A stretch of 64,000 nt of DNA from Fimicolochytrium jonesii (taxonomy: Eukaryota), in NCBI RefSeq assembly GCF_025526975.1, contig NW_026515700.1, positions 1 to 64,000 of the forward strand. Direction: 5' to 3'. The notes under the pieces were generated by a model. The model searched no databases, had not been told where the DNA came from, and was given only the letters and a program-made list of their open reading frames with translations. The position numbers and the translations under genes are program-made. Shown here one piece after another: positions 1-31,650 of the stretch (its first letter is position 1; the number at the start of each line of letters is the position of its first letter).

Positions 1-2132
1 GCTAGAGTACTTCCTTGCTGCACGGCTGCATCTTTTGCCGAGGGCAAAGAAATTACAGCTTTGGACCTTCCCCGACTCCCAGCGTTTGAAATCACAGATT
101 GTCTTTGCCTGCTTTGTGGATGCACCGAACCATCAGCAGAATACCGCAATTCTTCGAGTTCTACTCAAGGAATTCCAGAAGCACTCAATTCCTGTTATCT
201 CAGTGTCGTGCGATGGGGCAAGTCATTCTCTTGCAACACGGGGGCTTGACCACCCGAATTTATTACTGCGGTAGGTTTGCTTGCTGCAACTCCAATAATG
301 AACAGTAACTCATCGTGTCATGTTTAGATTTGGCGCGCCGAGCTGGATGCGGTTGTGAAAGAGGGCAGGAAGAAAGCCGAGATCGTGGAATGTCTGAAGG
401 AAGAGGCCCATGAATATATTCTGCAATCCCGTGCTCAACAGTGGGATGGCATGCCCTATGGAATTGGCACACAATTTGTTCCACATCTACCTGCGGGTTT
501 GGAAACACTGCTGAGAAACTATCGCAGTGAGGGCGCCCCATTCTTTGCGACGATACTTGAGACCTACCTGTTTTTGCACGCATGGACTTGGTCGGCATCC
601 CTGAGTTGCAAAACCTTCTGGAGACGTCCAGATCTGGGCACTGACACGACAGGAACAACAATTCCGCATGTCGACATTATTGCCAGGCCAGGGGGGACAT
701 CCTGTTAACCTTGGACGAACTCCCACGATCTCGGCGCTTATTGTGGCAGCGAACACAAATCGTACATCTATTTCGCCATTACGAGAATGGCTCACACGTA
801 TCTGAGTGGAAAGGCGAATGGCTGAGAGGAGGACATCTGGCGACGATTTTTTTTTTCCCCTTATGTGCCGGAAGTGAACCCTTCTACCCGGGACCTTCCT
901 TTGATCATTTCCATAGACCCGGATCACATCATGAAGCGATTTAACAAACATGTTACGACATCCGGGTTCGGAGCCCACTTGAGGAAAGAAGCCTGGCTGA
1001 GCATCGCGGGAATGCCTGAACACGATGGGGTGTTTGGAACTTGGTGGTATAAGCGTGACAATCAGTGTGATGCTGATGCGAAGACCGGGTTTTGCAAGCA
1101 GGTCGCAGATATTCTGGAAGCAACGGGTTATGCAAAGGAAGCTGAGTTCTGCAATGTTCTCCGAGAATTCTTTGAAGCACTTGATCTGTCTGGTATTTCG
1201 CAGGATGATCGAGAAGGAAGGGTTGATCGTATGATTGATTGGCTGGCCGACAAGGTGTTACCTTTCATGTACGGGGAACCCTGCTTGTTGCATCTTCCTC
1301 AGACACCTTATGCATACCGCCACTCGAGGCTCACCTGCCCCCCAGCGCTTCTGCACGATGAAGAGACTGCTCTTCCCATTGAACTGTTGGAGGCGACACT
1401 AATCCTGTGTTTTGGGCGAAGAGCAATGATTCGCTTCTTGGAAAGCGTTCCTTGCAACAAAACATATGCCGAAACCTCTCCCGATCCTGAGAAATGCACC
1501 CCAGTCTTCAACGATTGCTGGCGACAGTCCAATGATGTGGAGAATCACTTTTCAGCATTCAACCAAATCCTCGGAAAAGGTATGCAACTTTATTCGTCGG
1601 CATAATATCGCGCCACTTACACTCTGGAGTTTGCATAGGTGGACGTGGGCAAGTCAACAAAGCCTCCCCAACCGATGCTTTCCTTGCGCTGAAGAAGCTT
1701 CTCATTGTCCACAAGGTACACGTGACAATTTTTGGTGGCAGATGCAAAATGACTGATCCTTGGCACCGCTTCCAGCACGAGATGAGCGTACCTGGCCAGC
1801 TTGGATACTCGCGACCCGTCGCACGCGGCCACTCTTACGAACAAAAGAGCTACTGCAAAGACATCACCAACTTGAGCGAGTTGTCAACCGGCCAGACACG
1901 TACTCAAGCCCGTAAAGTCACAACACTCGTGGGAAAAAGGGCCCGTGCCAACACGACCGCAACACCGTACCATGCCATTCGCTCCCTTCACCGGGTTGAT
2001 CACGATGTTGTTGGGCGTACAGCAAGTATCGCAACCACTGTACACTTGGCAACACCAAGCTCTACACCGACAATGACCCCACGTAAACGTGCACATGTAG
2101 AATTAGGCGTAGATAGCAGTTCACCAAAATGA
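1..2132 (+). pseudogene. P-element/THAP9-like DDE transposase, 5'-truncated by the window edge, decayed
   Basis: Motifs in order: VSCDGASH (catalytic D), GDDFFF..YVPE, SIDPDHIMKRFN (DxxH motif), RDNQCDADA, RQSNDVENHFS (catalytic E). Introns at ~275-328 and ~1580-1638. Apparent in-frame stops at 272-274 and 803-805 and a frameshift in the T/C run at ~847-862. Confidence 0.65.
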
Positions 2133-3657
2133 TTCGAAAAGACTTGTATATATTTGATACATAGTACGGTACATACAAAAACACACTCTACGACTCGACA
2201 TCTCCAGTTTTCCTCTGTACAGCATTGCGTACTTTGCTTTGCATATACATCGAATGCACATAACGATTGCCGCTCAAGTAGTCTGTCACTGAATGATGAA
2301 GAAGGTTGGCTCAGAACAGGGTTAAGGTACCCACTTCCTGCTTTAGAACAACACCTGCATCGATGAGTTCAAGATCTCCCCCATTGCCGAAGTCGCCAAA
2401 GGTGTACTGAGCTGTGAAACCCTTGTCCTTGACATCGAAGTGGCAATCGACTGTCGAATTCCAAATGTGGGTATGGGTGGACCAGCAATCGTCTTTTGGG
2501 AGAAATCCCTTGTTAGAGTCGATGAGACCCTTGATCATGTCACGGTTGGAAAAATATTCATCGGGGGAGGCGATCCAAGCCATCGCAAGTTTGGCGATAC
2601 CATGCTTGAGGTAAGCCTGGTGAATGGCATCAGCCCCAGGAGCCCTGCAGGGACTCGAAAATTAGTTGGGAGCTTTCATCAAGTCAACGACATCTACCAT
2701 CATACCTGTCAGCATTCTTACTACCAGTCACTTCGCCCACTGGAGTGACAGTTCCATGTCCACGACGAACCCAGGTTCCCGAATGAGTCGATCGTCATGT
2801 CTCGTACAACCTTTCTCGATGACTCCCAGCTCGCTCATGGGTATAGCAAACACTTGCTGTCCGAGAAACAGGTTGCAAATCTGGCCAAGGGGCTTGAATC
2901 CAGGCTTGATAGCACTTGGTCATTTCGTTCATTGCTTGCTTGCCAAATGCATTGGGCATATACAATGCAAGAATGATGAACTTATTGTCGCTGTCGAGGC
3001 CATAGATGATCGAGTCGGTAGTGAGAAGCAGAGTCGGAGGCTTCAAGTCTGCATCAGGTGGAGTTTGATGGAAGCAGCCTTGTACACGATTTGGAATCTG
3101 AGCGACAATGGTTACTGTCTCTTTGTTGTCAAGCCACTCCTGTACTTGTTGTGGGAGCGACACCCCAAAAGCAAGTGCCTTGGCATCGAGCTTGGGTGAG
3201 ATGCGAGGGGATACCAGCACCACTGGGCGATTGTACCCATGCTTGTCGACAACTCCAATCTGCGAGAGTGAAGGTGGTCTTCCAGCTCGATCGTCGTCCA
3301 CCAGTTTGTTGAACTTTTCTCGTTGCTGCAGGTCCCGAGCCCCTGGTGTCGTTTTCCTCTTCTTTGCTCGCACAAAGCCTGGGTCCTCCTAGGTCTCGCT
3401 GCCCCAACCACCGAGGACAGCGAGCCCCTCAGTGCCCCACAAAAACTGTCCCCCCACTCTCTCGTTTGCCCCCTTTGCATTCTCTGCATTGCCCCCCTTC
3501 GCTGCCCTCGCTGCTGCAATCCCTCCCTCTAATTCCTTCCAAATCCTTCTTTGGTGATATCGGGTGGGGCGACAGTCCTCACACCACCAGCAAGGGTTCT
3601 TGATAACAGCGCTCATACAGCAGAGTCGGTGGAACCATCCCCCATGTTCGCATACAT

Positions 3658-4188
3658 TGTTAAGAATGGGCGGAGCCGACGGAAATAGAGGCGACTTGTG
3701 GTGCAGGTTGTTGACAGGTAATGGTATTCAGACCGAAACAAGAACTAGAACAAGACTAGGAAGAACTGGTGTTGATCTGCTGGGGGATCAGGAAGTGGGG
3801 AGCTCAGGGGAGGCGGCTATTTATGCTTTTCTCGGAAGGCTGGGGAAGCGTGGGGAAGCAGAAGGGTACGGAATGAGAGGGAAGCCAAGAGAAGCGCCAA
3901 GGGTGGGGGAAGCATAGAAACAGAAGACTGGGGATGGGGTGGCTACGCTGAGGCTGTGGGCGGGTACGTGGGGAAGTATGAAGAAGGGTTTGTAAGCGCC
4001 GAGTGTTGGGAGGTGCGGCTACGTGCGGCTGCGTGGAGAAATGAAGGCAGTGGCAGGTGTGGGGTAGCGCGGCTGCGTGCGGCTGCGAGGTTTGGCAGAT
4101 GTCAGGTTTTGACAGGGAATTGACATTGACTGACTGTTGGGATGCTGTCATGAGGTAAGCGCATGGTATGGACGCGCCGTCCATAACA
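3658..4188 (-). repeat. 3' LTR
   Basis: Direct repeat of 9008-9538 with 5 differences found by eye; TGTTA...TAACA ends. Confidence 0.97.
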
Positions 4189-4200
4189 TCACCCCCTCCT

Positions 4201-7200
4201 TTAGCCACGGCGTCCGGATGTTGTTTTGATGTTGGCAGGCTTTGGTCGGGGCTTGTCGGGGTACTTTTGGTGGAACTGGGCAACAAGCTCTTGACAGCGG
4301 GCAAGGTGTTCCACTGGCTCCCATGTGTTCTCCGAGCTTGGCCAACCCTGCCACTTGATGAGGTACTGAAGGTGCGTGCGTCGAATATGGGAGTCAAGAA
4401 TGTCTTCCACAATCCATTCCTCCTGTCCTTTGACTTCTTCTGGTGGGGTGGGTTCTGGCTCAGTTCGCTCCGGAATGGTGAAACGTGGTTCAAGAAGGGA
4501 GACATGGAAGACGTTGTGAATTTTGTAGGATGGGGGAAGCTTGAGGCGATATGTGACCGAGTTGATCTTCTCCGTGATTGTGAAGGGGCCAATCTTACGG
4601 TGATCAAGTTTCTGGGAAGGTTGGAGAGTCTTGAGATTCCGCTGTAAGAGCCAGACACTGTCCCTGGGTTTCATGTCTGGGCCAGGTGCCCTCTTAGCAT
4701 CGGCAAAGCGCTTCATGCGTCCTTGGGCCTCCTTGAGCTCAGTGGCAAGCTGTTCATGGATTTCCTTGAGATGGTTGGCACGAGCTTCGGCTGCAGGATT
4801 AAGGGATTCGGTTGTGGTGGCGGAAGCCAGACTGAATCGAGGATGGAACCCATAGTTGGCGTAGAAGGGGGTTGTCTGGGTGGCGGAGTGGATGGTGTTA
4901 TTGTAAGAGAACTCAGCAGAAGACAAGAGTTCCTTCCAGTTATCTTGTTGATAGTTGCAAAAGCAGCGAAGGTATTGCTCAAGAATCTGATTGGTCCGCT
5001 CGGTTTGTCCATCGCTCTGGGGATGGAACGCCGATGAGAGGTTGACCTTGGTTCCCAGGAGAGCGAAGAGACGTTTCCAGAAGTGGGAGTTGAACTGTGG
5101 GCCACGGTCAGATACAATATCGTCGGGGAGTCCATGGAGCCGGATGACATGGTGCCAGATCAGATCTGCAGTTGACTCAGCGGTGGCAGTTTTCCTGCAC
5201 GGTACAAAGTGCGCCATCTTGGTGAACCGGCAGATGACAACGAGCACAGAATCAACCCCATCACTGGCGGGTAGATCCGTGATGAAGTCCATGGAAATTG
5301 ACCCCCAGGGGCGGTCAGGGACCTGCAGGGGTTGGAGGAGACCGTAGGGCTTGTGTCTGCTGGTCTTGGCTTGAGCACATACGTCGCAGGACCTGATGTA
5401 GGACTTGACAAAACGCCACTGGCTAGGCCACCAGTAGTTGCGTGAGATGAGCTCCAGGGTCTTTGACATGCCGTAGTGTCCTGCCAAACGCGTGTCATGC
5501 ATGCCCCGGCAGATCTCAGCACGGAGCTTGTTGGTGGGGACGTAGACAAGGTTGTCGTACAGCAGAACCCCATTTTTCTCGGAGAATCGCTTTATCCGTT
5601 CTTGGTCTTCTTGAGATTGCTGGGCAATGGGGGCCCTAAGCTGTCGCCGGATGGTTTGCGCAAACACATCGGATGCCAGGGCAGCTTTGATTTGGTCAAG
5701 GAGCGAGGAGTCCAGTGGGGTCAGATAAGTGGTGGCCAGGCGGAGGTGGTCAGGGGTGAGGATCGTGGTTTCCTGGGAGCGGAATGCTTCTTCCCCCTCC
5801 CTTAGCTCGTATTCAGAGCGACGAGAGAGGGCGTCAGCTTGGTGTTGCTGGGTACCAGGGCGGTATGTGATGACAAAGTCGAAATCAGCAAAGAAGATTG
5901 ACCAGCGGGATTGGCGGCGGTTGAGGGTACGGGTAGTCATGAAGTACTGGAGGTTCTTGTGGTCACAGTAAACAATGACCTTGTGGCGGGCACCAATGAG
6001 GTGGTGTCGCCATTGAGCAAATGAGTCTTGGATAGCCAGGAGTTCCTTGTCGTAGATCTCATAGTTGATTTCCTCAAGAGTAAATTTGCGGGAGTGAAAG
6101 GCCACGGGGTGGAGTTGATCTGTGTTGTCGGGTTGAAGGAGGACGGCGCCAAGGGCAAAGTCGGAGGCATCGGATTCGACAATGAAGGGCTTGTCAGGGT
6201 CGGGGTGAGTCAGGATAGGTGCGGAGGTGAAGGCTTTCTTGAGGGTTTCAAAAGCTAGGTGTGCAGCGTGGGTCCATTTGAATGGCAAGTCTTTGCGAGT
6301 GAGCGTGGTCAGGGGTGCAACGATCGCAGAGTACCCTTTGATGAATCGCCGGTAGAAGTTGGCAAAACCAAGGAAGCGCTGGATGCCTTTGACATTCAGT
6401 CGGGGGTTCCCATTCGGTAATGGCAGCCGTCTTCTTTGGGTCCATGGAAATGCCTTGCTGGGAGATGATAAACCCCAGGAACTCAACAGAGTCACGATTG
6501 AATTCGCATTTTTCCGGTTTCGCATACAGCCCGTGCTGGCGGAGTCGTGAGAGCACCTCTCGGACGTGGTTGGGGTGGTCTTCTGGGTTTTTTGAGAAGA
6601 TCAGAATGTCGTCAAGGTAGACCACAACAAAAACGTCGAGAATGTCACGGAATATGTCGTTCATGAGGTGTTGGAATACTCCAGGGGCATTGGTGAGCCC
6701 AAACGGCATGACATTATACTCGAATAGGCCGTAGCGACATCGGAACGCTGTCTTCCATTCATCCCCTGGCCGGATCCGAAGAAGGTTGTAGGCTCCCCGG
6801 AGGTCAATCTTGGTGAGCCGGCGTGCCCCTCGAAGACGATCCATGATGCTGTTAATCAAGGGCAAGGGATAGCGATTCTTGATGGTGATATTGTTGAGTC
6901 CACGATAGTCGACGCACAGACGGAGGGAACCGTCCTTTTTCTTGACAAAGAGGACTGGGGCACCGGCGGGAGACTTGGAGTGCTTGATGAACCCCTTAGC
7001 TAGGTTCTCTTCAAGGTAGTCACAGAGTGCCTGCATTTCAGGCTCGCTGAGACTATAGATCGGGCCGAACGGTGGCTGTTTGCCCTCTTCTAAGTCGATG
7101 GGACAGTCGTAGGGTCGGTGCTCTGGGAGGGTATCCGCGTTCTTCTTGGCGAAGACGTCCGCAAAATCTTGGTATTCTTCAGGAATGATGGCCTTCGGAT

Positions 7201-8056
7201 CTTTTGGAGGAGTGGTCGCCAGGGCTTGGGAATCTGACTTGGTCGGATTGGCGTAGGCAATGAATGCCTGGTCATGCCTTGCCGCCACACGGAAAGCTGG
7301 GGCGCTGATAAACGATACGTGGATCGGTGTGGGTGCTGGGTCCAGTGTGTTGGGTGTCTGGGCTAGGGAGACTGAAATCTCGTCTTGATGGATACGGATC
7401 AGAGGTTCAGGGGTTCTTGAGGGCTTCGGGCTAGGTTCTGTTGGCAGGGCATCCCAGGAGGCGTATTGTCCAAAACCGCAATGGCAGCGGACGCAAAGAG
7501 TGCGAGTCTTCCAGTGTAGCTCCACATCATGGAGCTCAAACCAGGGAAGCCCCAGGATGATTGGCGCATGCGGGGAACATGTCACATGGAATACCACCTC
7601 CTCAAAATGGTCGTTGACCCACATGCCCAAAGGTTGGGTGTGATGGGTAATGGAGCCCGCATGGCTGGGACGTCCGTCAACCAGTTCAAGCGCAATGGGG
7701 TCCTCCTTCTTGACAAGTGGGATGCGGTGCTTGCGGGCATAACTTTCGTCGATGAAGCACGACATCGCACCGGTGTCAAGTAGTGCTGAAAGCTGAACTG
7801 GAGCTCGCTGGGCCGATATCTGCAGGGTAACAGGGTACTCGAATGGTGAGGATGGGCCCAAAATCCGCATGGGTGAGGGTATCTCAGATCGGAGATTGAC
7901 ATTGTTGGTGGTCAGGAGAAGGGTGTTGCTGGAGATGCCAGGATCGGAGCAAGGTTTTGTGGCTTCTCCCTTGGCAGTACTTGCGTGGTGAGAAGGCCCA
8001 GGACAGGTGTTGCCCAGCTGCTCGGCCTTTACTGCAGCTGGACTTGGGCAAAATCC
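4201..8056 (-). CDS. pol: Pol polyprotein (protease, RT, RNase H, integrase, chromodomain), one frameshift near 6397
   Basis: LLDTGA, YLDD, ESDASD, H..GH..C..C, SMDFI, VSDRG, GQTER, GPF, and chromodomain EWIVEDIL...YLIKWQGW...TWEP. Confidence 0.96.
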
Positions 8057-8956
8057 TGGATGGGTGCAGGTTCCTTAACCGCGACATTCGCCGTGCGTAT
8101 CTTGTTTGGGCAGAGTTTGGCTATGTGGCCAGGTTTACCACAATAGAGGCAAAGTTTGTTTGTGATGCGGTGTTGGCGCTCTAGCGGTGTGAGGGGTCCT
8201 CGCGGACGAGCAGCGTCAATGACCATAGGGTCGTCTGGGCGGTTGTCGGGGCTCATGAGGGTGGGGCTAGTGGTAACTGGCACATATGGCTGTCGGTTCC
8301 TGCTTCGCTCTAGACGGCGCTCAAACAATCGGTTGTCACATTGGATGGCCTGTTCCATCACGGTGTCGATTGAGGCGGTAGGGGGCATCGTGAGCATTAA
8401 GTCCTTGACGTCCTTCTTTGAGGCCGCGACGGAAGGTGGCAATCAATGCCTGGTCATTCCACGACACATCGCATTGCAGCTGTCGGAATTCAGCTACATA
8501 CTCTGTTGCTGCACGGGTTTGTCGAAGGTTCTGGAGCTTGTTTTCGGACGTGCGGATCCTGTCGCTGTCTCCAAAGACTGCTTGCATTTGCTGGATGAAA
8601 TCATCCAGGTTCGTAAGGGAATGATGGTCTTGTTCGACAAGGGGCGCCAGCCAGGCCTGGGCGGTGCCAGTGAGGTAGGTGCCAATAGTTCGTATCTTGG
8701 TCTGATCGTTGGGGTAGCGCCTGGGTTGGAGGGCGAACATGAGCCGGATCTGGTTGAGGAACCCACGGAACTTGCTTCGGGTGCCATCAAATTTGTCTGG
8801 GAGACTGATTTTGGGTTCGGGGGCGTGGGTGGCAGGGGCAGTGGTCTGGGTTTGCGCTAGTTCGGCTTGTAGGGTGGTATTCTGTGCTCGAAGTTCGTCA
8901 ATCGCATTGCACATGGCTTGCCAGGCTTCGGCCGTGAGGGGAAGGGCGTCGGACAT
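8029..8956 (-). CDS. gag: Gag (PEG10/Ty3-like capsid + CCHC knuckle), one frameshift near 8413
   Basis: EPKISLPDKFDG, LQNLRQT..EYVAEF, FRRGLK/DVKD across the frameshift; LCLYCGKPGHIAKLC zinc knuckle. Confidence 0.93.
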
Positions 8957-9007
8957 GGTGATTTGGCGTGGAGGTACAGCGGCTGGGGGTTGTTGAGCAG
9001 ATCAAAC

Positions 9008-27185: not shown

Positions 27186-27424
27186 TGCATTCGATACGAG
27201 TGTGGCCGGTGGATACACCTCTGTCGCCACTCGTATCTAGGGGTCACTAGGACATCTGTCGTCAGGTTGGGGATATTCGGACAGTCGTATGTCTGGCCAA
27301 CGCTATTAGCGTAATGAGTTGGGATGTCCAGCAGAATGGGGAGGGAGGCCATTGACGGGGACAGCCCTTCATATAATCGAATGCATAAATGATGGGTGTC
27401 ATGCAAAGCTGAAGTGACTGTGTC

Positions 27425-27521
27425 TGAGATCATGGTGCATATACTGTACAAGTTGCCATCATCGGCGATGCCTCCGGCAGAGGTACAATAATGTGGATGG
27501 CAGATAACCACCACGGAAAAT
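27425..27521 (-). ncRNA. Putative Fanzor omegaRNA (scaffold ~27521-27442 plus flank-derived guide)
   Basis: Lies between the Fanzor stop and the element 3' end. Foldable stems GTGGTGG/CCATCCAC, TGCC/GGCA with CATC/GATG, and TTGTAC pairing with terminal GTACAG. Confidence 0.7.
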
Positions 27522-27541
27522 GGGATGGGGTGAAATCTAGA

Positions 27542-30500
27542 CTACCGGTTACGGGAAAATGCGTCTGGTCTGCGGCCATTGCCAAACACCACCGAACGCA
27601 CAATCGAGAGGAAATTCTTGGTGCTCAGGACGTCCCGATTGTGCACTTTCATCCGTAGTGGTTGTCTCCCAGGAATCTCAAATGGCGTCCAGTCTTGGTT
27701 GATACATTCGGGGTTGGGGCAACCCAGCAATCCATGGACGTATTCCATTCTTCCCCTTCTAGCTTGCCACGGCCAAGGTGACAGCCGGCGTCGGATGTTT
27801 TTCTTCACACGGCCGTGGCAGTCTGGGCACACGGACGACGTTCGATACTCATCCAGCAAGTAGCATGGAATGCCGTTTCTCGCAAAGAGTGTGCGGAATC
27901 CGATTTCCATGATGAGTTAGCATATTAAAATACATAAAAAACAATGATGGTCACTCACCCCTTGGTCTTTGATGACTCCTGAAAGCGCATTGTTTTTCCA
28001 GCATCGCTCCAATCACCCAGGATGACCGAAAAATGCTTTCCATACCGGTGTCGCATGTTCTTAATGAGCTTGCTCTCAGACTTTTGCCGCAGTGAGAACG
28101 CCTTGAATCTGCGAGCGACGTGAATCTCATCCCGGTAAAACTCATCCAGGGCGGGATCTTGAATATGGATGTCAGCCCATGTTTACCCAACTTTGAAGAC
28201 GATACATGATACATCATACCTGCATGTATGTGATCCACAATGAACGCTGAGAACTCCTCGATGTTCATGCTCTTGTGCGACGGAATCTGTGATTCCATCT
28301 CAGCAACGCCAGCATTGATCTTCCGCTCTGTCATGTCTCTCCGAAAGTACCGCGATTTTGTCTCGACCGCCCGTTGATTGGATGTGTATCTGGTATGGGG
28401 TGGTGCATTGTGAGAACGCTGCAACGGAATGTCGCCGCAATGGGGATGGTGGGCGGAGACGGGAGGCTGGCGGGCGGAGACGGGGGGCTGGGGGCGGAGA
28501 CAGGGGGCTGGCGGGCGGAGACGGGGGGCTGGCGGGCGGAGACAGGGGGGGGGGTAGCGGAGACGGGGGGCTGGCGGGCGGAGACGGGGGGGGGGGGTAG
28601 CGGAGACGGGGGGCTGGCGGGCGGAGACGGGGGGCTGGGGGCGGAGACAGGGGGCTGGCGGGCGGAGACGGGGGGCTGGCGGGCGGAGACGCGGGGGGGG
28701 GGGGGGGGGGGGGGGGAAGGGGGGTAGCGGGGACAGCAGGGCAGTAGTAATCAACTGAAACGTACCGAAATGGCCGCTCCTTCTCAATATCTCGACAGAA
28801 CAGGAGGTCACGCTTGCCCGGATCAATGCAGACGATGTTTGGAGCCTCCCGTAGTTCGGCGATGTGGTGCTCAAAATACAACTGCTTGACTTCTTCCCGC
28901 ATTTGGGCCTTGCTGCGCTTCCGGGCCCGATGCCCATACTTGAGCCCTGGCTTCTTGAAGTGGATGGTAACGGAATACCCGTTGGTGCTAATTGACCCAT
29001 CGAACTTGAGACCAAGCTTCTTTCGATGTTTGAAGACCTTGTCCTATAATCCGTCATTCAGCGAAGTAATCTGATTGAAATAAGCACATAAGGATAGAGA
29101 CTTACATTCACGTTGATAAACTGCCCCCACAGCTCCCGCTTGCGTTCATCAGTGAGTTTCCCCATGCGACGTCGGCCAACATCCAGGATATGAGTGCCTA
29201 GGATCAGCGTGTCGATCCGAACAGATGACTGGATTCGAGATTTGCGCAGTGGGATAGCGGAAAACAGCCGCATTCCACGGCGCTCATAGAGGCATGAGAG
29301 CTCACAATAGGCACCTCTGGTGAGACAGGAGTGGACCATGATTAGACAAAAGAGGAAGCCAGGGGGAGGGGGGGGGGGGCGAAGGGGGCGAGCGGTTAAG
29401 TCGACGCCGTGGCGGTGGGCAAGAGCATCGGCCGTGCCCCGGGCCCGCTGTGCACGCACTGGGGGCGTCGTCAAGGCGGGGGAGGAGGGGGGGAGAAGGG
29501 GAGGGGGGGGGACCCGCAGGAGCCAAGCGTGCGGGCACCCCAGCGGCGACAGCGCATCGCGAACCACGTTGGCCGGGGTCCTGGCAGGCAGCCACTCAGC
29601 CAGGTCGGCATACCAAGCGAGGCACTGCACAGCCACGCACGAGCCTGGGGGGGGGGGGGGTGAAGATACAGGATGCAACCCACCTAAATATGGCATTGCG
29701 TCCACCGCAAGGTTGTACGCAAGCGGCTCATCCTGGGGAGGAAACAGAGCCCATAGCTCGTCGAGGACAGTCTGCTCAAGTCGTGTGAGGCGCGCAAACT
29801 CCTCTTCGGTTGGAAACTCTTCAAACGTCGCAAATTTTGTAAATTGACGGACCCGCTGATAATACTGTCTCCGCTGCGCTCGGTTGACTCTGGCTCTCCG
29901 GAGATGCAGTGCGACTTGCTTCAAACCAATCCTTTCGTTGATGTAGCGCAGAAGCATTTGCATGAAATGCTCTTGTACGTTGACTTTGAGGTTTGTGAGG
30001 ATGCTCTGAGCCGTGTATGCTGCCGTCTGTTGGCAATTTCGCATGCGTATGGGGGCGAATCCGTAAACATTACAGTAGTCTTGAACCCATGGACGCAACT
30101 CTTGCGTGATGACCGGATTGCCGTTGTAGCCCGGATTGTTTAGCAGCTCAAATATCATGCCGATGTGCTTGTCCATGATGTCTGGGAAATCGTGCAGAGG
30201 ATGATCAGCTGTGGTGGGCAGACGTAGTAGTCAGGACATTGTTTCAGGAAATATACAGTGTAGTGTACGCCAAAAACTCACCAAGGTAGTACTTCAGGAA
30301 GAAGGTGGTGTGGCGCGCAAGGATGTGAACATTGCCGATGAATGTTCTGAGGCGCTCCCTTTGAACTTGATTCTGATGATTCTGATTATGGATTCGATGA
30401 AGGGAAACCTTGGTGCAGGCATGCGTCTGCGGGCGGGGTCGTTGAGCAGGGGGTGGAGGCGGGGGTGGAGGCGGGGGTGGAGGCGGGGGCTCATACGCCA

Positions 30501-30846
30501 GGGGTCCACCCGGTGTGCTGGGAAAACGGAAAGGGATGTCAGCCGGGAGGTTCAACGGACGCTGCAGACCCCTTTTCACAGGTGAAAGCCCTCGATGCTG
30601 GTGCTGCCCGTCGTCATCGCCGGAACTCTCGCTGACCATGTCTGCAATGGCTTCGGGCAAGTGGCGACGGATAGACGGTGGGAACTCAAATCGCGGGGGT
30701 GATTGCAATGGTGTCTGCACAGTTGGCAGACGTATGGGCAACCGCGGGGTAGCCGGAGCAACCTTCCTCCTCTTCCGCCGTGGTGTGGTTGCTCCAGTAA
30801 AGATGCCACACCACAGGTGCCCCTGGAGCGCCTGGTGTGATGACAT
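27542..30846 (-). CDS. Fanzor1 (eukaryotic TnpB-like RNA-guided RuvC nuclease), ~7 exons; start uncertain
   Basis: Spliced product: TKVSL..HTTFFLKYYL, FSAIPLR, FDGSISTNGYSV, CIDPGKRDLL (RuvC-I D), FRYTSNQR, ILGDWS, LLDEYRTSSVCPDC (RuvC-II E + Zn), VHGLLGCPNPEC, HNRDV (RuvC-III D). Introns 30209-30281, ~29316-29683, 29044-29105, 28390-28765, 28158-28219, 27900-27958. Confidence 0.92.
28449..28716. repeat. GC-rich ~21-bp minisatellite plus poly-G inside a Fanzor intron
   Basis: Roughly 11 imperfect GGCGGGCGGAGACGGGGGGCT units followed by a G run. Confidence 0.9.
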
Positions 30847-31456
30847 GTTGGGTGTGCTGTGCCTTTTGCGTGCCTGCTAGAGATGAGGTGTATGCAGGTG
30901 ATTGCCGTGATGGATTGCCGGGAAGGAAGGGGGTTGAAGGAGTAGAGTGGGGATCCCCACGTTTTTTACACGCGTGTAAAGGATGTGGGGCAGCTCTGGG
31001 GTTGATTGTGGAACTCGTTACTTTATTCCCCTTCACACATTGGGAGCCGCCGGAGGCGAGTGACGGCTATGGCAGCAAAGTACAGTATGTCAAGTTGGCA
31101 AGCGCTACACTGCGCTATATACTAACCCTCCCTACGCAGCCCAACCACAGTGATTCGCAAAAAGCTAAGCTATGTAAATGTGGGAATCAATATGCGCTTA
31201 TAGGGAGATTGATGAATTGCACGCATTTTTTCACCCATAATCATCGGATCTCAGCAGAGATGGAGGTGGGCGGCGTGAAGTAATGAAGTCTTCTTCAGAA
31301 AGCAGTTCCATCATGGTTGTGGCTTCATCACCGGTGAGCGTAGTGCCGCTAGACCAACGTATTGCTAGAGCAACATATTGGATGCTGATGCCTTGGGGCT
31401 TGAATGCAGTGCTCAGGCTGAAAGAGTTGTCGCCTTTGTTCTCGACTATGACAGCG

Positions 31457-31650
31457 AAGCGATTGCGGAAGGCGAGAGAGCGTACCGCGAGTGCCCAAAT
31501 CCAGGCTGCACCTCAAGCGATTGCAGGAGTCGAGAGCGTACCGCGAGTGCCCAAATCCAGGCTGCACCTCAAGCGATTGCAGGAGTCGAGAGCGTACCGC
31601 GAGACTGCCCCTATTCCGGGCTGCCCCAAGCGATTGCGGAAGGCGAGAGC
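31457..31650. repeat. 56-58 bp tandem repeat (~3.4 copies)
   Basis: AAGCGATTGC unit starts at 31457, 31515, 31571, 31628. Confidence 0.9.

Follow-up and report, generated by a model that had tools for sequence, protein, structure and literature searches.

Among described Fanzor1 systems, the closest to the locus reported here is Spu-1 of Spizellomyces punctatus with its nuclease SpuFz1 (PMC3627910; PMC10432273; PDB 8gkh), described as a 2.1-kb element with one open reading frame (ORF), terminal inverted repeats (TIRs) that start GTGCGG and abut TA, CA ahead of the left TA, and an omegaRNA layout at the right end; Saito et al. describe no transposase for it (PMC10432273). TA duplication marks Mariner and IS630 elements (PMC3627910, PMC13565253), and the Mariner-type elements PGv-1, PUl-1, and PUl-4 likewise carry Fanzor1 cargo between TIRs and TA duplications, PUl-4 without a transposase (PMC3627910). 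Fanzors have also been reported to gain introns, up to the density of host genes (PMC10530073). Here, we analyzed 64,000 nt of Fimicolochytrium jonesii (assembly GCF_025526975.1, contig NW_026515700.1, positions 1 to 64,000, hereafter the window) and describe a minus-strand locus that is quite probably a non-autonomous DNA transposon copy flanked by TA. Its cargo is a SpuFz1-type Fanzor1 gene interrupted by six introns, and a guide RNA is predicted at the right end. Owing to a mutation in the last splice acceptor, a functional nuclease is unlikely to be made from this copy.

The Spu-1/SpuFz1 layout and introns in Fanzors are thus already published (PMC3627910, PMC10432273, PMC10530073), and the window element shares with Spu-1 the Fanzor1 branch (42%–44% protein identity), the lack of a transposase, TA-abutting TIRs, a CA that precedes the left TA, and the right-end layout. 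Of SpuFz1 residues, Q129, Q130, R291, Y345, W570, and the D-E-D triad are kept. Unlike Spu-1, the window element is 3.6 kb long with six introns, its TIRs are weaker and unrelated, its protein carries some 130 additional disordered N-terminal amino acids, R96, N133, and N385 are changed to G, A, and G in most of its family, and the copy in the window is splice-damaged. PpFz1 of Parasitella parasitica (PMC11423790; PDB 9cf0) is similar in fold, in the leader of its omegaRNA, and in having a TTATCG-type loop and a CAAT-type linker, and differs in its identity of about 20%, a much shorter second stem, and other domain insertions. The TIRs of PGv-1, PUl-1, and PUl-4 are common to confirmed Mariner elements (PMC3627910), whereas the window ends start CTG and have no known partner transposase. 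No description of a Fanzor family in F. jonesii was found among Fimicolochytrium papers judged by title, and the supplements of PMC10432273 and PMC10530073 that were searched lack the genus; Repbase and subscription journals may hold one.

A Fanzor1 gene split over seven exons

The gene runs from 30846 to 27542 and encodes 767 amino acids if its exons are joined as in sister copies of F. jonesii (Table 1). It had been predicted as a RuvC nuclease gene fragmented over seven exons, and this is borne out: D507, E666, and D738 match D383, E541, and D606 of SpuFz1, and the zinc cysteines C673, C676, C709, and C714 are present. The published Fanzor1 motif consists of D-X(125-275)-[TS][TS]XX, a four-cysteine zinc finger and RD, with a Glu six residues ahead of the finger (PMC3627910, PMC13565253), and the window protein has it as D507, E666-YRTSSVC673, C676, C709, C714, and R737-D738. 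SpuFz1 is the best solved relative of both exon 7 (E-value 2e-28) and exon 2 (E-value 2e-24).

Introns 1–5 are bounded by GT and AG. The junctions of introns 1–6 are supported by 5/6, 7/9, 13/17, 24/24, 35/37, and 42/42 sister models, respectively, counted in a subset of the models and only where a model holds the relevant context. Independent support comes from the sister protein P0051, which aligns with the intronless SpuFz1 without gaps at all six junctions. Intron 2 has an open frame and would give 890 amino acids if retained; we rejected it as coding sequence, as it is absent from SpuFz1 and spliced by 13 sister models.

Fold prediction was made for P0051 rather than for the window copy. 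Residues 129–759 of P0051 align to SpuFz1 (E-value 5e-149), and its AlphaFold model, built on a 16-row alignment, has a predicted local distance difference test score (pLDDT) of 74.7, with residues 1–131 disordered (pLDDT below 50). Searched against the PDB, the model matched SpuFz1, PpFz1, and GtFz1 in its first seven hits, with a Foldseek E-value of 3e-49 and 42% identity for SpuFz1. Together with the exon matches, this upholds the identification as Fanzor1 that the original prediction had proposed to check by splicing and structure searches. In a tree of 20 rows, seven F. jonesii models fall into one clade with the window copy (100/100) beside Gaertneriomyces (90/99), deeper forks being open, and the terminal branch of the window copy is short (0.02). 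By homology, the element carries a Fanzor1 of the SpuFz1 branch.

The family is multi-copy in F. jonesii, judging by its annotated gene models. Exon 7 as query retrieved 14 proteins, 13 from F. jonesii and one from Geranomyces, and cluster look-ups for 10 of these plus a second search raised the total to 57 F. jonesii gene models on at least 31 distinct contigs, which is not a copy number, since single loci may be split over several models. The window copy is identical to none of them, and 51 of the 53 aligned stretches longer than 150 amino acids are 83%–95% identical. Pfam misses the family: the best match, Cas12f1-like_TNB, lies below the cut-off (E-value 0.004), and P0051, P0059, and P0062 gave no match. 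Scans of metagenomes and viruses yielded 16 and 6 loci, respectively, at 22%–46% identity, none from the family of the window. In one F. jonesii model, P0069, a Fanzor fragment is preceded by an unrelated N-terminal half that by eye resembles a tyrosine recombinase; this may be an annotation fusion or a case of nested elements.

Intron gain places the window gene with the intron-bearing Fanzors (PMC10530073). Five SpuFz1-like metagenomic relatives (L001, L002, L003, L005, and L007) share an intron after INLRLG, and two of them (L002 and L007) have another after HGLLG; the window gene has neither. Introns at other places in these relatives suggest repeated gain within the SpuFz1 branch. Locus L011 (3102–7069) is an intron-bearing, 4-kb Fanzor1 element of 31% identity with clean 35-bp repeats starting TA-CAGT, that is, Tc1-like ends; none of its nine ORFs scanned has a transposase domain, and the 1.8 kb before its gene hold no recognized domain.

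Element ends and a predicted omegaRNA

The element spans 31085–27444 (3,642 bp), plus one TA on each side. As predicted, CTGTAC ends abut TA, with CATA|CTGTAC at 31089–31080 and GTACAG|TA at 27449–27442, each occurring once within 27300–31200. Also in line with the prediction of a non-autonomous element between imperfect TIRs, the repeats agree at 29 of 41 positions, counting TA and with two gaps, and no transposase is encoded within the element. The two arms are reciprocal best non-self matches among 127,757 window positions, scoring 34 against 33 and 30 for the next best, and they are not among the 25 longest of 164 pairs from an ungapped repeat finder. Neither a second copy nor a ghost of the ends was found within the 64-kb window, and a 17-base TIR pattern had one match in viral contigs, without further likeness and judged to be chance. 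TA flanks both ends of this one copy, and both ends read TA-CTG-TA, so that two nested TA pairs are possible.

Overlooked by the original prediction were the alternative inner TA boundary and a putative omegaRNA scaffold at the right end, which measures 80 nt to the outer TA and 75 nt to the inner one (27448–27447). A-UUUUCCG starts 21 bases past the stop codon and aligns with U5, C6, C7, and G8 in SpuFz1 numbering. Next come a 7-bp stem interrupted by a single bulge, a loop of UUAUCUG, CAUU, and the second stem, whose eight basal pairs close on the TIR and its TA. The fold has a z-score of -2.8, and 1 of 200 shuffled sequences was equally stable. In the omegaRNAs of SpuFz1 and PpFz1, the same leader is followed by a TTGTCG or TTATCG loop and a CAAT linker (PMC10432273), the first stem is 7 bp long (PMC11423790), and the second stem of SpuFz1 spans U35 to A75 (PMC10432273); in an insect-virus Fanzor1, the TIR and target site duplication (TSD) likewise lie within the last stem (bioRxiv 2023.08.09.552727). 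The metagenomic relative L003 has the same leader downstream of its stop codon. From sequence likeness and folding, we predict an omegaRNA-like scaffold with the SpuFz1 layout.

Table 1. Coordinates of features of the Fanzor1 element and its flanks in the window
Feature	Position	Strand	Remarks
5' flank CATA	31086..31089	-	TA 31087-31086 candidate TSD; CATA candidate target-adjacent motif (TAM); single junction
Left TIR	31047..31085	-	starts CTGTAC
Perfect 16-bp palindrome	30965..30980		within 36-bp imperfect hairpin 30955-30990, ~120 nt upstream of start codon
Exon 1	30282..30846	-	~130-amino-acid disordered Pro-rich extension with basic run PRRKRRK, then start of WED/REC
Intron 1, 73 nt	30209..30281	-	GT-AG; 5/6 sister models sharing the context join here
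Exon 2 (REC)	29684..30208	-	G215 at place of SpuFz1 R96 (30131-30129); Q248/Q249 kept; A252 at place of N133 (30020-30018)
Intron 2, 369 nt	29315..29683	-	C-rich; acceptor GAG; second AG two bases upstream, frame-shifting
Exon 3 (WED)	29106..29314	-	R411 at place of R291
Intron 3, 62 nt	29044..29105	-	GT-AG
Exon 4	28766..29043	-	Y469 (= Y345); RuvC-I D507 (28824-28822); G509 for N385 family-wide
Intron 4, 376 nt	28390..28765	-	filled by 21-nt C-rich minisatellite; 24/24 sister models sharing the context join here
Exon 5	28220..28389	-	
Intron 5, 62 nt	28158..28219	-	GT-AG; 35/37 sister models join here
Exon 6 (RuvC, GDWS motif)	27959..28157	-	
Intron 6, 59 nt	27900..27958	-	GT donor, CTAAC branch site, acceptor CGG for CAG
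Exon 7	27542..27899	-	E666 (27850-27848), zinc cysteines, W691 (27775-27773), D738 (27634-27632), stop TAG
Predicted omegaRNA scaffold	27442..27521	-	TTTTCCG leader, stem-loop 1 (7 bp), stem 2 closing on TIR
Right TIR	27444..27482	+	
3' TA, candidate TSD	27442..27443		
Predicted 15-nt guide from host flank	27427..27441	-	by analogy with SpuFz1
TACTGTA sites	21533, 21538, 30071, 31684, 32490, 32511, 46542, 58376, 59522, 59554		plus the two element ends

Lesions in this copy

The original prediction took the transposon to be complete and to encode a programmable nuclease. As an intact gene, it is not complete: intron 6 ends AAATCGG, with no AG at the junction. Among sister proteins, 43 of the 46 FRTLFA-type contexts are preceded by KT[KE]G, and two of the other three read through the end of intron 6, one as MEIRF and one as SWNRF; both thus have Arg at the position of the Gly in the window's MEIGF. 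This Arg implies an AG acceptor in those sisters, and hence an A to G change in the window at the invariant acceptor. By computation, retention of intron 6 gives 649 amino acids without E666, the zinc finger, or D738, and splicing at the next AG (27879), which is in frame, gives 760 amino acids lacking seven RuvC residues.

Two further changes make a programmable nuclease doubtful for this copy. The intron 2 acceptor is weak, GAG and GG splice acceptors being rare, and use of the AG upstream of it would yield 400 amino acids; the sister P0011 reads through intron 2 as CLITG where the window reads CLTRG, which suggests a CAG acceptor in that sister. Residue 691 is Trp in the window copy and Arg in 44 of 46 sisters and all 11 outgroups. 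Taken with the mutated last acceptor, these lesions make it very probable that the window copy has lost nuclease function.

Alternative readings of the locus

Several points weigh against a decayed copy bounded by the outer TAs. The sister gene models are automatic annotation rather than RNA evidence, and the G at 27901 may be a sequencing error. The repeats are weak at 29/41, 26 of 2,976 random pairs of 200 × 200-nt regions reach the score of the two end regions, and the ends, TSD, and TAM all come from the DNA of one copy. TACTGTA, at both of those ends, has 12 occurrences in the window where 2.1 would be expected; it is the top TA-NNN-TA word there, some four to six times enriched, and may be a host motif or a trace of old excision footprints, so the terminal match carries less weight. 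For the RNA, no consensus structure emerged from alignment with two metagenomic relatives, a formal covariation test failing for lack of alignable relatives, an Rfam search gave no match, and the outer boundary leaves a 2-nt RNA linker versus 6 in SpuFz1. Were the error at 27901 real, or were intron 6 to use as its acceptor GG or the GAG that lies in frame 21 nt downstream, the same element would be an active copy, and the seven open, in-register exons, the intact triad and cysteines, the short terminal branch (0.02), and the rescue AG at 27879 are all consistent with that. We consider it unlikely, in view of three separate lesions, the loss of FRTLFAR, aligned to the helix ahead of the catalytic strand, that the rescue AG entails, and a Gly, as in 12 of 15 sisters, in place of the DNA-anchoring loop Arg that is essential in GtFz1 (PMC11423790). 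That the gene is a Fanzor flanked by chance repeats, its real ends lying elsewhere or lost, would fit their low identity, a chance window scoring 33 against 34, and the 0.9% of random pairs that reach the local score; reciprocal best matching of the arms, a right arm that stops where the omegaRNA-like fold stops, and the same layout in Spu-1, with CA ahead of the left TA (PMC10432273), make this very unlikely.

Where exactly the element ends bears on both TAM and guide. Ends at the inner TAs (31080–27449), inserted in the middle of a host palindrome ATACTG-TA-CAGTAT, would imply a TAM of (C)TGTA rather than CATA, and the enrichment of TACTGTA in the window and a scaffold of exactly 75 nt with U74-A75, like that of SpuFz1, speak for them. 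They are nonetheless improbable, as the repeats would mismatch from the second base on, accident would have to account for the 8-bp stem that spans the outer five bases (chance about 1.5%; -24.3 against -16.7 or -13.2 kcal/mol), the fold would be weaker, and the intact right end would show TGTA ahead of the guide, making it a self-target. In a different reading, the element still ends at the outer TAs and the guide begins five bases earlier (27446), such that the nuclease, with a CATA TAM, would cut the excision footprint TA-CAG-TA. That guide has no mismatches to a modeled CAG footprint directly after CATA, its scaffold has the exact length of that of SpuFz1 with U35-A75 and G36-U74 pairs possible, the intact end would be spared as it shows TGTA, and TACAGTA and TACTGTA are canonical Sleeping Beauty footprints (bioRxiv 659086). 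Against it, this is the least stable register in free RNA, the length match may be chance, and, in every solved Fanzor, it is the scaffold rather than the guide that contains the 3' TSD (PMC13565253). Literature on Fanzors, footprints, and excision, judged by title or abstract start, had nothing on footprint cutting. We regard this reading as quite unlikely, and retain the outer TAs as the boundaries of a decayed copy.

Target-adjacent motif and mobility

A 5'-CATA TAM had been predicted for the nuclease. CATA does stand at the junction, Spu-1 also has CA ahead of its left TA (PMC10432273), and four of the six TAM contacts of SpuFz1 are kept (Q129, Q130, R291, and Y345); the claim is weakened by there being a single junction, where CA before TA has a chance of 1 in 16 given TA, and by change of the other two contacts, R96 to G and N133 to A. 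At the N133 place, 16 of 17 sisters have Ala, and at the R96 place, 12 of 15 have Gly and 2 Arg; the equivalent Arg of GtFz1, in its DNA-anchoring loop, is essential (PMC11423790). We give CATA itself an even chance, and if the TAM is not CATA, it is likely a relaxed variant of it.

No transposase was found in the element or in the 130 scanned of 162 window ORFs outside it (at least 115 amino acids). Judged from TA alone, a transposase of the Tc1/mariner class acting in trans is fairly likely. In the mechanism that we propose, a TA-specific cut-and-paste transposase encoded elsewhere would have spread the family to many sites. An intact member would then produce, from spliced mRNA, a nuclear protein of 760 amino acids, and trimming of the transcript 3' end would leave the 80-nt scaffold with about 15 nt of host flank as guide. 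The complex would cut an allele that lacks the element, in which CATA precedes the flank, and the element would be regained by homologous repair templated by the filled sister. Decay has probably left the window copy silent or able to supply a guide alone, and its guide RNA could still load onto proteins from intact copies, as with the ghost loci of Spu-1. The basic run PRRKRRK in exon 1 is presumably akin to a nuclear localization signal. Upstream of the start codon, the palindrome hairpin (30955–30990) is a candidate promoter element, whose ACGCGT core we take to be a G1/S MCB box, and it might time expression to S phase.

Genomic surroundings

The element lies about 260 nt beyond the last frame of an opposite-strand WD40 gene. 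Just beyond its left end, at 31453–31650, are three to four tandem repeats of 56–57 nt, two of them identical, with overlapping frames that have no Pfam match. The left flank itself (31086–31103) resembles the right end (27442–27461) in direct orientation, a likeness spotted post hoc that 218 of 127,964 windows equal in score and that may be chance or a decayed older end. Farther away, a Ty3/Gypsy chromovirus-type retrotransposon occupies 3800–9000 on the minus strand, with gag, protease, reverse transcriptase, RNase H, integrase, and chromodomain in three frames, and adjoining it at 826–3400 are several ORFs of 180–260 amino acids on both strands without a Pfam match, possibly another decayed mobile element.

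Implications for the Fanzor1 family

The locus belongs to an unannotated, many-copy, intron-rich Fanzor1 family that can be compared with SpuFz1 residue by residue, and this copy cautions that an intact catalytic triad does not equal an active copy. The role of an OMEGA nuclease in transposons that excise uncleanly is an open question (PMC13565253, section 6.2). If true, the reading in which the guide starts at 27446 would address how such a nuclease benefits a footprint-leaving DDE transposon: in this family, the guide would have come to begin within the final bases of the transposon itself, and the cut would fall on the TA-CAG-TA scar and not the scarless empty site. The natural changes at two TAM contacts provide a test case for co-evolution of TAM and insertion site, and an intact sister could provide a new compact editor.

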